DNA of 64,000 bases, taken from a virus (taxonomy: Duplodnaviria > Caudoviricetes). The DNA lies in IMG/VR virus record IMGVR_UViG_3300015050_001523, positions 224,001-288,000 of that record; one strand, given 5' to 3'. Every line of letters starts with the position of its first letter. The stretch's first letter is position 1. Of the stretch, positions 20,939 through 43,467 are shown piece by piece. The translations under genes were made by a program, and so were the position numbers. The notes under the pieces were generated by a model that saw only the letters and a program-made list of their open reading frames with translations, did no database searches and was not told the DNA's origin.

Positions 20939-22453
20939 ATGTTTAGAAGATTAAAAGCAGATAAAGATACTATGATTACCAATAAGATTATTAATGGTAC
21001 TCGTGTTACTGATGCAAATGTTGGACAGGCAGGCACATTAGATCTTTTTAAATTGGCAGATGAGTCAAGCTTAAATGGGGTTTCTGGCTCTATTCTTGAG
21101 GTTTCTCGCCTTCTTCTTCATTTTGATTTGGATCCGCTAAGAGAATTGACTGGCTCTATTTTAGACTTTACAGATTCATCATTTAAGGCACGCCTAATTA
21201 TGAATGATGTATTTGGTGGTCAAACTCTTCCATCTAACTTTACATTAATTTCTTATCCTTTGGCAAAGTCATTCAATGAAGGAAATGGATATGACATTGG
21301 GCAATTTAGAGATATTGATTCGTCAAATTTTATTACAGCTTCAACAAATGTTACTTGGAGCATTGAAGGAGCCAATAGCTCAGGTACATTAGGAGATTCT
21401 AACATTGATATTTTTGAATATGGAAATATTGGAAATGGAATTCAAAGTTTGTTTTCAACTCAAGTTTTTTCAGATGGATCTGAAAATTTAAATTTGGATG
21501 TAACAAATGTAATTTCTGCAACATTAGCTGGGGCTATTCCTGATTATGGATTTAGAATATCTTATAGCGGAACACAAGAAACAGATGGAATTACTAGATT
21601 TGTAAAAAGATTTACTTCTAGACATGCAAATGACCCAGCATTTAGACCAAGAATTGAGGTATTTTTTAATGATTCAGTTCAAGATGATCATGGAAATTTC
21701 TTCTTTGATTTAAGTGGAACATTATTTTTGAATAATTTCCATTATGGTCAACCTGCAAACATAATTTATAATGGACAAGAAATAACAGGAGTAAATTCAT
21801 TGATACTTCAAGTTACTTCTGGCTCAGGTTCTACTTATTTTAATAAGTTTGTAACAGCTTCACAATTTTCGATTGGTGAAAACTTTCAAACAGGAATGTA
21901 TTTTGCCCAATTTGCAATTGGAACAAACGAAACAGCTTCAATAAGAAGAGAAATAGATCTTGCAAGTTCTGCAACATTTAAAGAAATATGGCAAAATATA
22001 GATGGAACTCAAGGATTTTTTACTGGCTCTTTACAAATTAAAAAAGTAACTAGAACAGCATTTGATACTGTTCCAACAAAATTAAATGTTGTAATTAGAA
22101 ATAATATTGGAAAGTATCAATCAACTGAAAAAGTAAGATTTCATATTTTTGCACAAAACCCATTAGAAACAGTTAGATATTATAAATTGCCACTACAAAG
22201 AAAAAGCTTATTATTAAAAAATATGTTTTATCAGATTAGAGATTCTAATAGTGGAAAAATTCATATACCATTTGAATCACAAAGCAATGCTACAAAGTGC
22301 AGTGTTTTTGATGATGGAATGTATTTTGATCTATATATGAGCGATTTAGAAGTTGGAAAAACATATGGAATTGAATTAAGATTTACAGATTTTGGTTCGA
22401 CTGTTGTTCTTGGAATTGACGAAGTTGGCGCAGTCTTTACGGTTATACAATAA
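20939..22453 (+). CDS. Virion structural protein with DNRLRE/CBM96-like domain
   Basis: KADKDTMI...SRLLLHFDL...ARL...YPLAKSFNEG...LDVTNVI...GF...RPRIEV pattern; located in the baseplate block. Confidence 0.55.
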   Translation: MFRRLKADKDTMITNKIINGTRVTDANVGQAGTLDLFKLADESSLNGVSGSILEVSRLLLHFDLDPLRELTGSILDFTDSSFKARLIMNDVFGGQTLPSNFTLISYPLAKSFNEGNGYDIGQFRDIDSSNFITASTNVTWSIEGANSSGTLGDSNIDIFEYGNIGNGIQSLFSTQVFSDGSENLNLDVTNVISATLAGAIPDYGFRISYSGTQETDGITRFVKRFTSRHANDPAFRPRIEVFFNDSVQDDHGNFFFDLSGTLFLNNFHYGQPANIIYNGQEITGVNSLILQVTSGSGSTYFNKFVTASQFSIGENFQTGMYFAQFAIGTNETASIRREIDLASSATFKEIWQNIDGTQGFFTGSLQIKKVTRTAFDTVPTKLNVVIRNNIGKYQSTEKVRFHIFAQNPLETVRYYKLPLQRKSLLLKNMFYQIRDSNSGKIHIPFESQSNATKCSVFDDGMYFDLYMSDLEVGKTYGIELRFTDFGSTVVLGIDEVGAVFTVIQ

Positions 22454-41085: not shown

Positions 41086-43467
41086 ATGTCACTTATTAAA
41101 ATAACTGAAGACGATGTTGAAACATTTACAATCGTTACAAATCCGAAAAAGACTTATTCAAGTAGTTCAATTGATGGGATTAATGGAGAAATAAGTCTTT
41201 TTGCGCGTCGTTCTTCAATTGAAAAAGAGGCAAGGCCACTTTTACAGTCTGGTGTTCAAGTATTTAATGAAGAAAGTATTGAATCACTTCGTTTGAAGAT
41301 TGTTGAAAAGGCGAAGAATTCTACAAACGTTTCTTCTGAAGTTAGCTATTATATTGCTGGTGTAAACTCAGAATTATCTTCTTCTAAAAAACATAAAAAA
41401 CTTAATATTTTTAGATTTGAGCCATCATTTGAATTTACTGATGACACTTTAAAAAAGAGAGCCATTCAAGAACTTTATCCATATTATAGAAATCAGTACC
41501 CCGATGCTCAATGGGCATATACAAATTACCATTGCTTAAATTTTTTCACAGCTTCAGGAATACCGGAAGATTCTGTTCTTCTTTATCCAAATTCTTCATC
41601 TATTGCATCTTTATCTTCTGTTTCTGGAAGTTATTCCTTGTCTGATGCCTTTACATTTGAATTTTATATAAATCCAAAATATACAACAGATGGACCTACA
41701 AATCACTTTAAGGCTGGAACAATATTCCATCTTTCTTCTTCTTATGCCATTTCTCTTGTAAGTGGTTCTTCAAAAGACTCAAAAGGATTTGTTGATAAAT
41801 ATAAAATATTACTTCAGCTAAGCCATTCCGCAGACATTTCTCCGTCTTTGGCAACCGCAGGTACTTATCCAAGAGATCTGATTTTCGAAACAAATGACAA
41901 TGTTTTAAATAGAAATAATTGGCATCATGTAGCTATTAGGTGGGGAACAAATAAAATAAATCAAGGTAGTGGTTCATTTTTTGTTGATGGGGTAGAAGCT
42001 GGTACTTTTGTGGTTCCGTCTTCATCTATCGCGCCTGCTCCTTATTCGCTTCCAAAAGGGAATCCTGATGTTCTTTGTATCGGAAATTTTTACGAAGGAA
42101 TAAATACTGGTTCTGCTGCACAGTCTATATTTTTTAATACTGAACCTGCCACGCGTGATGGACTAGTCAACTTAGCCCCAGGATTCAATCAGCATCAACC
42201 TTCTCAATTTTCATTTACGCATCCCCTAAATGCAGAAATTCATGATCTTAGAATTTATAATTCTTTTAGACTAACATCAAATATAGACTATGATCGAACT
42301 AATGGCCCATCAAGTCTTTCAGGATTAGTATTTTATCTTGGCCCTTTTTTTACACGAGAAAGCCCAATAAGGACAGTACTAAATCAACAAGGTGGAGTTT
42401 TGCAGACTCCATTTTTTGGAATTGACGGAACAACAGATGATCCATTTAATGTTGCAATGAGTTTTGGTGTTGGTGGCCATTATATGAATCTCGAAAACTT
42501 TCTTCGAGATTTAGTAACAGAAAATTATCCAAGACAATATCAGTTAACAGGTTCTCAAATTTTAGACACTATAAGCCCTGTCCCTGCTAATGAATCATTG
42601 TATTTGACAGGCTCTATTAAAAAAAGAAATGTAACAATTCTTCCTTGTGACAATGGGCTTTTTATTCCAAATTTTGATCTATTAAAAAGTGGCACAATAT
42701 CAAATGTCCCATCAAATGGCTCTGCAATGGATAAATTTGTAAATGATCTTGGACATCTTGATCTTACTTTAATATCTTTGAGAAATCTTGTTTCAACATC
42801 AAGTTTGCGACTTGGATTTGTTCCGCAATCAGGTTCTATGTTTGATGCAATCGCCGGAGCAACACCTGAAGATCCTGGAGTTGATCCAGGAGAAGTTTTG
42901 ACAATTTACCAAAGAACAAGAGACAATTCTTCAAATGAAGTTTCATTTTTTGAAATAAGTAATATTTTCTTTGGAAATAGAATAAACCCAGAAAGCTTTA
43001 AGATAACTGATTCTAAAATTTCAGGAAGTGGAGATAAAGTTTCGATTACTTTAAGAGATAATGGGTATGGAAGCATTTATCGTGCAGACTCAATAACGGA
43101 ACATGCAAAGTGGAATAGTGTTGGAAATATATTCTATAATGAAGGGATTGCTGTAATTAAATCTCCAAATATTCCATTTTTTGGAAAAGAACAGTTTTCT
43201 ATGGAATTTCAAGGAGAACAAACAATTCATGTTCTTATGCTTTCTGCCGAAGCTGCTTCTGGACTTGTTAATTCTTCTAGTCATCCAAATTTCATTCCAG
43301 TTTCTGCATCTTTAAATGTAAATGAGAATGATACTAGTTTTGTATACATTACAAATATTGATTGGCTTGATGATAATTTAAATGTAGTTATGAAAACAAA
43401 TCTTGCCCAACCCATAAAAAAAAGAAATTCAGATAAGCTTTTAGTAAAGGCAAAGATGGATTGGTAA
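41086..43467 (+). CDS. LamG-domain structural protein with C-terminal domain paralogous to 39398..40636
   Basis: FTFEFYINP...NNWHHVAIRW...FFVDG...AEIHDLRIY (LamG); C-terminal YITNIDWLDDNLNVVMKTNLAQPIKK...KMDW. Confidence 0.65.
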   Translation: MSLIKITEDDVETFTIVTNPKKTYSSSSIDGINGEISLFARRSSIEKEARPLLQSGVQVFNEESIESLRLKIVEKAKNSTNVSSEVSYYIAGVNSELSSSKKHKKLNIFRFEPSFEFTDDTLKKRAIQELYPYYRNQYPDAQWAYTNYHCLNFFTASGIPEDSVLLYPNSSSIASLSSVSGSYSLSDAFTFEFYINPKYTTDGPTNHFKAGTIFHLSSSYAISLVSGSSKDSKGFVDKYKILLQLSHSADISPSLATAGTYPRDLIFETNDNVLNRNNWHHVAIRWGTNKINQGSGSFFVDGVEAGTFVVPSSSIAPAPYSLPKGNPDVLCIGNFYEGINTGSAAQSIFFNTEPATRDGLVNLAPGFNQHQPSQFSFTHPLNAEIHDLRIYNSFRLTSNIDYDRTNGPSSLSGLVFYLGPFFTRESPIRTVLNQQGGVLQTPFFGIDGTTDDPFNVAMSFGVGGHYMNLENFLRDLVTENYPRQYQLTGSQILDTISPVPANESLYLTGSIKKRNVTILPCDNGLFIPNFDLLKSGTISNVPSNGSAMDKFVNDLGHLDLTLISLRNLVSTSSLRLGFVPQSGSMFDAIAGATPEDPGVDPGEVLTIYQRTRDNSSNEVSFFEISNIFFGNRINPESFKITDSKISGSGDKVSITLRDNGYGSIYRADSITEHAKWNSVGNIFYNEGIAVIKSPNIPFFGKEQFSMEFQGEQTIHVLMLSAEAASGLVNSSSHPNFIPVSASLNVNENDTSFVYITNIDWLDDNLNVVMKTNLAQPIKKRNSDKLLVKAKMDW

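Follow-up and report, generated by a model that had tools for sequence, protein, structure and literature searches.

Mycobacteriophages are said to glycosylate their virions with glycosyltransferases (GTs) that they themselves encode, as Freeman et al. reportedly described in Cell Host Microbe in 2023. To our knowledge, this group is so far the only one for which phage enzymes have been shown to glycosylate the virion, and this without a sequon. In the chlorovirus PBCV-1, virus-encoded GTs and a GDP-mannose 4,6-dehydratase (GMD) glycosylate the capsid protein at non-canonical sites and independently of the host machinery. POFUT1 and POGLUT1 read a short motif on folded epidermal growth factor repeats, and GtfA/GtfB, which belongs to the GT4 family, O-GlcNAcylates serine-rich adhesins. 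Here we describe the tripeptide [ST]-G-S (hereafter [ST]GS), which is strongly over-represented in predicted outer virion proteins encoded on a 64,000-nucleotide stretch of a Caudoviricetes genome (hereafter the window) that also carries an island of GT genes. The window comprises bases 224001–288000 of a 322.5-kb IMG/VR virus record (IMGVR_UViG_3300015050_001523, hereafter G000), for which CheckV estimated a completeness of 93%.

Large aquatic Bacteroidota phages termed "Moraphages" possess four core GT orthogroups of unknown role, and virion glycosylation was named in their description only as one possibility, with no motif reported (PMC12619734). Our literature searches on an SGS sequon or on tail-fiber glycopeptides found nothing relevant. 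A previous reading of the letters of the window (hereafter the original prediction) took [ST]GS to be the acceptor signal for the adjacent GTs. The [ST]GS observation itself is real, strong, and clade-wide. We assign a probability of roughly one half to the interpretation that the motif is the acceptor signal for O-glycosylation of outer virion proteins, initiated by one of these enzymes, which we call GT4b (14260–15510).

Enrichment of [ST]GS in the window

Six proteins of the baseplate and fiber module (4047 residues, all encoded on the + strand) are clearly enriched. They contain 38 [ST]GS sites, whereas 6.3 are expected, and the highest count reached in 1000 within-protein shuffles was 15. 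This comparison with shuffled proteins had been proposed together with the original prediction, and it bears out the excess. The richest carrier is a 1172-residue gp7-like baseplate protein (22453–25971; 12 sites, 1.7 expected), which has at least two LamG-type jelly rolls and a Pfam LamG_3 match at residues 167–318. The others are a 504-residue multi-domain β-sandwich protein encoded directly 3′ of the gp6-like gene (20939–22453; 5 sites, 0.7 expected), an 862-residue virion-module protein (26768–29356; 7 sites, 1.7 expected), a 304-residue protein (29422–30336; 2 sites, 0.3 expected), a 412-residue protein (39398–40636; 4 sites, 0.6 expected), and a 793-residue LamG_3 protein (41086–43467; 8 sites, 1.2 expected). 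LamG_3 (PF13385) matches two of the carriers above its gathering score, with 44.9 and 30.4 bits against a cut-off of 27.6. A 265-residue protein on the same strand (25971–26768) has one site against 0.42 expected and is not significantly enriched; the ratio in its family is 2.7 (nine homologues). A 135-residue protein (57228–57635, + strand) is borderline, with two sites against 0.36 expected, and the major capsid protein (MCP) of the Gp23 family (61998–63872, + strand) has four sites in or at the edge of an expanded insertion region.

The hand counts that accompanied the original prediction were exact for the seven tail-module open reading frames (ORFs; 5, 12, 1, 7, 2, 4, and 8 in gene order), for 57228–57635 (two sites), and for MCP (four sites). 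The zero counts were likewise correct. No site is present in any ORF of 27–20891, a range that includes GTs and the inner baseplate genes for gp5-, gp25-, and gp6-like proteins (17169–20891, + strand), and none is present in 45942–52735. Three giant ORFs (800, 1321, and 653 residues; 30340–38674, + strand) had been described as nearly free of the motif, and they hold 0, 0, and 1 site, that is, one site in 2774 residues, although they are as Ser-rich as the carriers; the families of the first two show ratios of only 0.2–0.3. One figure needed revision. The expectation had been put at about one site per 1000 residues, but the Ser-rich carriers have an expectation of 1.4–2 per 1000 residues, and therefore the excess, while strong, is about 6-fold and not 9-fold.

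In the seven-protein set including the 265-residue protein (4312 residues), SGS (25 against 4.4 expected) and TGS (14 against 2.4) rank first and second of all tripeptides by over-representation. Ser (6.3-fold) and Thr (5.9-fold) are the only residues enriched before Gly-Ser. At the middle position, Gly is enriched 6.1-fold, Ala 2.3-fold, and Ser 2.1-fold, and after [ST]-G the ratios are 6.1 for Ser and 2.3 for Thr. The related variants [ST]AS (2.3-fold) and [ST]SS (2.1-fold) are thus raised in the same proteins, as had been noticed before. Residue pairs typical of turns occur at expectation (NG, 23 against 21.8; DG, 21 against 18.6; GN, 23 against 21.9; GD, 13 against 18.7), and neither [ST]GN nor [ST]GD is enriched in the carrier proteins. 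On each side, the residue that adjoins the motif is hydrophobic in 53–55% of the sites, compared with a background of 34%. The specificity of the motif is sequon-like, with a hydroxyl residue at position 1, Gly preferred over Ala and Ser at position 2, and Ser at position 3. It differs, as predicted, from the Bacteroidetes sequon D-(S/T)-(A/I/L/V/M/T), which is not enriched in the carriers (21 against 15.6 in shuffles, 1.3-fold), and N-x-[ST] reaches only 1.1-fold.

Across G000, the excess is confined to the virion module. Motif-rich proteins beyond the window are a sheath paralogue (5 sites, 0.95 expected), a 392-residue protein (4 sites, 0.23 expected), and a 141-residue protein (3 sites, 0.66 expected), and the other 325 ORFs contain 47 sites against 36.9 expected (1.27-fold). 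The two sheath paralogues, of approximately 1000 residues each, are adjacent (G000 296551–299568 and 299615–302617), and only the first is motif-rich, the second having 2 sites against 1.15 expected.

Conservation of the motif in homologue families

IMG/VR contains 353 relatives of the gp7-like protein, and 73 non-identical homologues (42–79% identity) were analyzed. They hold 731 [ST]GS sites against 132 expected (5.6-fold), mostly at fixed positions. The sequence T-S-G-S-[WF] at residue 680 is present in all 73 homologues, and other fixed sites are G-[ST]-G-[ST] at residue 286, [LF]-S-G-[SAT]-[LIM] at residue 304, and [ST]-G-[SA]-[FW] at residue 926. In these columns, position 1 is almost always Ser or Thr, Gly is nearly invariant, and position 3 is Ser more often than Thr and Thr more often than Ala. 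Invariant columns are few in this family, and several of them are motif residues.

The ratios of the families are bimodal. On the high side are the families of the 504-residue protein (6.2–6.3-fold, 96 homologues), the 793-residue protein (5.9-fold), the gp7-like protein, the 412-residue protein (5.1-fold), the 304-residue protein (4.7-fold, 19 homologues), and the 862-residue protein (3.7-fold). On the low side are the gp6-like (0.31-fold; 22 sites against 71.9 expected in 141 sequences), gp25-like (0.2-fold; 2 against 10.2), and gp5-like (1.2-fold) families. Adjacent genes therefore differ 20-fold across the clade, as seen for the 504-residue protein (6.3-fold) and its gp6-like neighbor. The depletion of the gp6- and gp25-like families below the 1.27-fold baseline suggests avoidance of the motif. 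Among 131 homologues of the 504-residue protein, no full-length sequence had fewer than two sites, and only truncated fragments fell below this number.

Distribution in other phages and in cellular proteins

The closest named phages to G000 are Flavobacterium phage immuto, Microcystis phage Mel-JY01, and the uncultured huge phage LR756508. In Mel-JY01, whose host belongs to another phylum, the genes after gp6 are enriched approximately 8-fold (SGS, 42 against 5.9; TGS, 22 against 3.3), and SGS and TGS lead the tripeptide ranking and show the same specificity there as they do in the window. In immuto, SGS occurs 32 times against 6.6 expected and TGS 25 times against 5.5; the tail-fiber and spike genes at 85.6–100.8 kb are enriched 4–6-fold, and the gp6-like protein has no site. 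A 1053-residue tailspike of immuto (NC_055915, 97658–100819) carries 26 [ST]GS sites. Thirty-three distant relatives in IMG/VR, with a gp6 identity of only 32–35%, show 3–15-fold enrichment downstream of gp6.

Homologues in LR756508, the only phage of the clade that lacks the candidate enzyme described below, are not enriched, although its gp6 identity of 31% makes it as close as immuto and Mel-JY01. Its homologue of the 504-residue protein has no site (0.24 expected) and its gp7-like protein (1400 residues) has two (0.86 expected). In alignable stretches, TGS or SGS in the window and Mel-JY01 corresponds to SHS and IGH in LR756508. The 412-residue protein has homologues in immuto, Mel-JY01, LR756508, and the complete 197-kb genome G129, and the LR756508 homologue has three sites against 0.34 expected. 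No alternative enriched tripeptide was found in the LR756508 baseplate proteins. Close relatives of LR756508 in IMG/VR were only 94%-identical copies, which gave no further contrast.

Equal enrichment in homologues from GT-free phages or in cellular LamG proteins had been named as an outcome that would speak against a sequon, and it was observed neither in LR756508, which lacks the candidate enzyme, nor in the cellular proteins. In cellular LamG_3 proteins, sampled at 38 loci in genomes of Bacteroidia, 94 sites occur against 62.5 expected, which is only 1.5-fold; none of our claims depends on G102, an unpublished genome in this sample. The peripheral baseplate and fiber proteins of T4 show no excess (7 against 8.4, 0.83-fold). 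Rhodothermus phage RM378, with 11 sites against 4.8, no clear outlier, and a low Ser content, is ambiguous as a negative control.

Positions of the sites in predicted structures

The AlphaFold2 model of the gp7-like protein has a mean predicted local distance difference test (pLDDT) score of 65 and is good in residues 80–345 and 620–910, which form LamG-type jelly rolls; its Foldseek matches are LamG, pentraxin, and neurexin LNS domains. At 132, 195, 206, 222, 710, and 731 of this model, position 1 of the motif either ends a strand or immediately follows one, and the motifs at 169, 680, and 843 are each followed directly by a strand. The 504-residue protein was predicted with higher confidence (pLDDT of 87, predicted template modeling score of 0.84) as a chain of Ig/FN3/CBM-like sandwiches, and its Foldseek matches are of the same type. 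Its sites at residues 49, 71, 294/296, and 362 are located before strand 53–62, at the end of helix 65–71, at the end of strand 288–294, and within strand 359–368, respectively. The models thus depict the motif as a turn element at β-strand/turn junctions of decoration domains. Burial of the sites in β-turns had been listed beforehand as a result that would contradict the sequon; the sites do sit in β-turns in the models, which leaves a structural explanation alive.

All five sites of the first sheath paralogue lie within residues 177–563, outside the conserved C-terminal domain. For MCP, the original prediction had placed all four sites in the inserted domain. Three of them (residues 172, 178, and 207) are in the stretch 160–365, which is expanded relative to residues 172–248 of T4 gp23, and the fourth (residue 151) is at its edge.

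Glycosyltransferase genes and the candidate enzyme

The sugar island (27–15510) contains seven GT genes, two GT2 and five GT4, as assigned by Pfam. Its variable part (27–11031, + strand), which is free of [ST]GS, encodes two GT2 and three GT4 enzymes, GMD, a UDP-glucose/GDP-mannose dehydrogenase, Gfo/Idh/MocA and FAD oxidoreductases, and a methyltransferase. The two remaining GT4 genes, also on the + strand, encode GT4a (12967–14244), whose gene adjoins that of a PD-(D/E)XK nuclease in every clade member, the motif-negative LR756508 included, and GT4b (14260–15510), a GT-B glycosyltransferase with an E-x7-E motif and the candidate for the motif-reading enzyme. The E-x7-E motif of GT4b is intact: Gly274, Glu275, and Gly276 are invariant and Glu283 is nearly invariant. 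An insert in the C-terminal half of GT4b (window 15241–15309, residues ~328–350) contains two CxxCxGxG motifs, CPSCNGSG and CSICGGTG. The window and its closest relatives have this insert, but orthologues of about 50% identity lack it, so that it is not part of the shared function.

GT islands adjoin baseplate genes in all five large relatives tested. The order of PD-(D/E)XK nuclease, GT4a, and GT4b is common to the window (11648–15510), immuto (48008–51927), Mel-JY01 (81375–86302), and G129 (47820–55949). LR756508 keeps the nuclease and GT4a (303816–306748), which are followed by a different island with genes for a cytidylyltransferase, GT29, GT10, a methyltransferase, an epimerase, GMD, and NeuB. 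This island, which takes the place of GT4b, is of the sialic-acid type. Because LR756508 has a GT island and lacks the motif, the motif goes with GT4b rather than with the mere presence of a GT island. The original prediction is therefore sharpened: one GT4 enzyme could be singled out, and the reference to the adjacent GTs collectively was too broad.

A phyletic profile of 391 G000 ORFs was compiled against the whole genomes of immuto, Mel-JY01, G129, and LR756508 by tblastn (E ≤ 1e-5), which covers genes that are present in G000 and detectable by tblastn. Four ORFs were found in the first three genomes but not in LR756508. Two of them are partial matches (8–45% covered), one is found in LR756508 at a laxer threshold, and the fourth is GT4b, which is the only full-length ORF of the 391 that follows the distribution of the motif. 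A profile built from 23 GT4b orthologues gave full-length matches in the three motif-positive genomes (E values of 1e-75 to 1e-83) and none in LR756508. Among 50,697 phage records, a GT4b homologue was found only in immuto and Mel-JY01. A large protein collection yielded 3841 homologues at E ≤ 1e-5, all of them environmental and none characterized. Sequence searches of the PDB returned only generic GT4 matches for GT4b (WbaZ and MshA-like), and those for GT4a were likewise generic. The prediction of a complex between GT4b and the LamG domain of the gp7-like protein (residues 120–345) scored 0.00, which is no answer and carries no weight either way.

The phyletic link between GT4b and the motif is useful but not strong evidence. 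Approximately 24 core genes are common to the three positive genomes and two of them encode GTs, so that the chance that a missing one is a GT is about 10%.

At 3065–8430 of Mel-JY01 (PP395634), a "structural protein" gene with 13 [ST]GS sites against 2.5 expected adjoins the gene of a 1226-residue protein annotated as an FkbM methyltransferase, and the latter protein holds a second, weaker GT4b-like domain (E = 7.5e-21). Liquid chromatography–mass spectrometry of immuto DNA detected canonical dA, dC, and dT and a replacement of dG by fdPreQ1, and no glycosylated base was reported (PMC10516641). DNA is therefore an unlikely target of the island in that relative.

Composition, paralogy, and DNA-level causes

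A DNA-level cause was rejected because the sites use approximately 30 different 9-mers (codon triplets) and GATC is not avoided in G000 (1082 occurrences against 1002 expected). Paralogy of the carriers was rejected as well, because no significant similarity was detected among the carrier proteins. The ratio of 1.5 in cellular LamG_3 proteins excludes a general feature of LamG domains, and that of 0.83 in T4 excludes a general feature of myovirus baseplates and fibers.

The Gly codon before Ser-TCN is GGT or GGC, and not the otherwise dominant GGA. In 20939–43467, GGT-TC occurs 22 times in the motif and 14 times outside it, and GGA-TC three and four times, respectively. Because the preference is equal in Gly-Ser dipeptides outside the motif, it is a codon-pair effect and not a signal. 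This codon-pair bias is not explained by avoidance of GATC.

Other features of the window

All genes of the window are on the + strand, and its G+C content is approximately 30%. The sugar island is followed by the gp5-, gp25-, and gp6-like baseplate genes, by the large proteins, by replication and packaging genes, and by the Gp23-type capsid protein. The large proteins after the gp6-like gene have no family match except for the two with LamG_3 domains. Directly beyond the end of the window are the two sheath paralogues and the tube protein. GTAC is strongly under-represented across G000 (236 against approximately 1002 expected), as is CTAG (379), and the scarcity of GTAC may reflect avoidance of a GTAC-specific restriction system. 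In a 217-residue ORF (10944–11597), residues 151–194 match the N-terminal part of the Gp23 capsid family (PF07068, E = 1.7e-5), and the same short piece gives tblastn matches in the MCP genes of immuto, Mel-JY01, G129, and LR756508.

Discussion

The motif, which can be written as [ST]-[G, less often A/S]-[S, less often T/A], would in our preferred reading be a recognition signal for a trans-acting phage factor. It would be displayed at predicted exposed strand/turn junctions of the baseplate periphery, the fibers, the outer sheath domains, and the capsid insertion. Acting in the cytoplasm on proteins that are folded or still folding, GT4b would O-glycosylate the first Ser or Thr of the motif, and GT4a together with the lineage-variable upstream GTs and sugar-nucleotide enzymes would then extend the glycan. 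The attachment of a glycan, the role of position 1 as the acceptor, and that of GT4b as the initiating enzyme are what we infer from the statistics, the predicted structures, and the gene distribution. The sequon is thus supported circumstantially and narrowed to one candidate enzyme. We tentatively propose that GT4b may be a new phage-encoded, sequon-specific O-glycosyltransferase, which primes a lineage-variable virion coat in a very large aquatic T4-like clade infecting Bacteroidota and Cyanobacteria, and that gp6 and gp25 may have been selected to avoid the motif.

Several observations weigh against this reading. In the gp7-like family, Ala occupies position 3 in 28 of the 73 homologues at residue 306 and in 15 of the 73 at residue 928. 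The AlphaFold2 models place the sites in tight turns, where Gly followed by Ser is structurally favored. Part of the immuto signal may be due to a fiber repeat containing S-H-A-E-G, which is indicated by the over-representation of HAE, SHA, ASY, and GSF in the fiber and spike proteins of this phage. Non-virion proteins do not avoid the motif, as seen from their ratio of 1.27, though a promiscuous cytoplasmic enzyme might impose avoidance. Furthermore, the motif-positive phages are all relatives, and LR756508 is part of an unresolved trichotomy at the base of the motif-positive clades in the gp6 tree, which leaves a single independent event, a gain or a loss, common to the motif and GT4b.

The next most likely explanation does without any enzyme; [ST]GS would be a tight β-turn or strand cap preferred by this clade in fast-evolving β-sandwich decoration domains, handed down and reused, and its link to GT4b would be due to shared ancestry. 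The strand/loop location of the sites in both models, the hydrophobic flanks (~55% against a background of 34%), the tolerance for Ala at position 3, the mild S-G-x excess of cellular LamG proteins (SGS, SGT, and SGN at about 2-fold each), and the single phylogenetic contrast all agree with it. We nevertheless regard it as rather unlikely, because generic turn formers (N-G, D-G, G-N, G-D, [ST]GN, and [ST]GD) are not enriched and Ser or Thr is obligatory at position 1, for which a turn has no need. Homologous folds in LR756508 and functional equivalents in T4 do without the motif, whereas it recurs in proteins that have no mutual sequence similarity (LamG-type, Ig/CBM-type, sheath, and the MCP insertion), and its frequency in the gp6- and gp25-like proteins falls below the proteome baseline.

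The same statistics demand a reader but not specifically a glycosyltransferase, and a kinase, an acyl- or methyltransferase, an assembly chaperone, or a decoration protein might recognize the motif while the GT island serves, for example, the remodeling of host surface glycans. The island does contain methyltransferases, and the rich sugar island of LR756508, which occurs without the motif, indicates that island and motif are separable. However, the phyletic profile offered no kinase or chaperone candidate among the tblastn-detectable G000 genes, and apart from GT4b the ORFs that fit it are the two partial matches and the one that is also found in LR756508 at the laxer threshold; we consider such a reader improbable. 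Ser/Gly-rich composition, internal repeats, a DNA-level signal, or chance are still far less credible as the source of the enrichment. The carriers are indeed Ser-rich (9–13%), and the immuto tailspike repeat (SHAEG and related sequences) supplies some of its sites, but the within-protein shuffles stayed far below the observed count and the giant ORFs of equal Ser content are almost devoid of the motif. In addition, the carriers are not paralogues, their codons vary without a DNA motif, and the pattern is kept in hundreds of homologues.

With its defined acceptor motif of three residues and a single named enzyme candidate, the O-glycosylation reading would be directly testable, because two members of the clade are cultured, namely immuto (host, Flavobacterium sp. 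LMO8) and Mel-JY01. If it is true, sequence would allow the prediction of glycosylation sites in thousands of uncultured aquatic phages, and the conserved GT genes of large Bacteroidota phages would gain a function. A soluble motif-directed O-glycosyltransferase would also be a possible tool for glycoengineering.

Among known systems, the O-glycosylation of Bacteroidota, the likely host phylum, also uses a three-residue sequon, D-(S/T)-(A/I/L/V/M/T). This sequon, which is not enriched here, is recognized in the periplasm, a compartment that virion proteins do not enter. The phage resembles the Moraphages in being an aquatic jumbo phage with T4-type structural genes, predicted Flavobacteriia hosts, and conserved GTs, which is a likeness only and does not imply membership. 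Like PBCV-1, it encodes both sugar-nucleotide enzymes, including GMD, and GTs, whereas the PBCV-1 glycans are N-linked, belong to a eukaryotic virus, and are attached at a different motif. The chlorovirus GT-B enzyme B736L (PDB 3oy2) is a weak sequence match of GT4a (E = 1.4e-4), of a kind that is generic for GT4.

The closest parallel for the proposed action of phage GTs in the cytoplasm on their own virion proteins, giving a glycan coat outside the particle, is that of the mycobacteriophages. Their glycans are reportedly on the C-terminal tails of capsid and tail-tube subunits, and no short sequon is known to have been defined. In contrast, the motif described here is internal, located at β-turns, and spread over many baseplate, fiber, sheath, and capsid-insertion domains. 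C-terminal siting is not seen, because the MCP sites are at residues 151–207 of 624 and the tail tube (162 residues) has no [ST]GS site. In its mode of recognition, GT4b would work like POFUT1/POGLUT1 and GtfA/GtfB, which are soluble GTs that modify Ser or Thr in a short, structurally presented motif and to which no specific homology is detectable. GtfA is a GT4 enzyme with a paralogous partner, and the adjacent GT4a/GT4b pair might work likewise.

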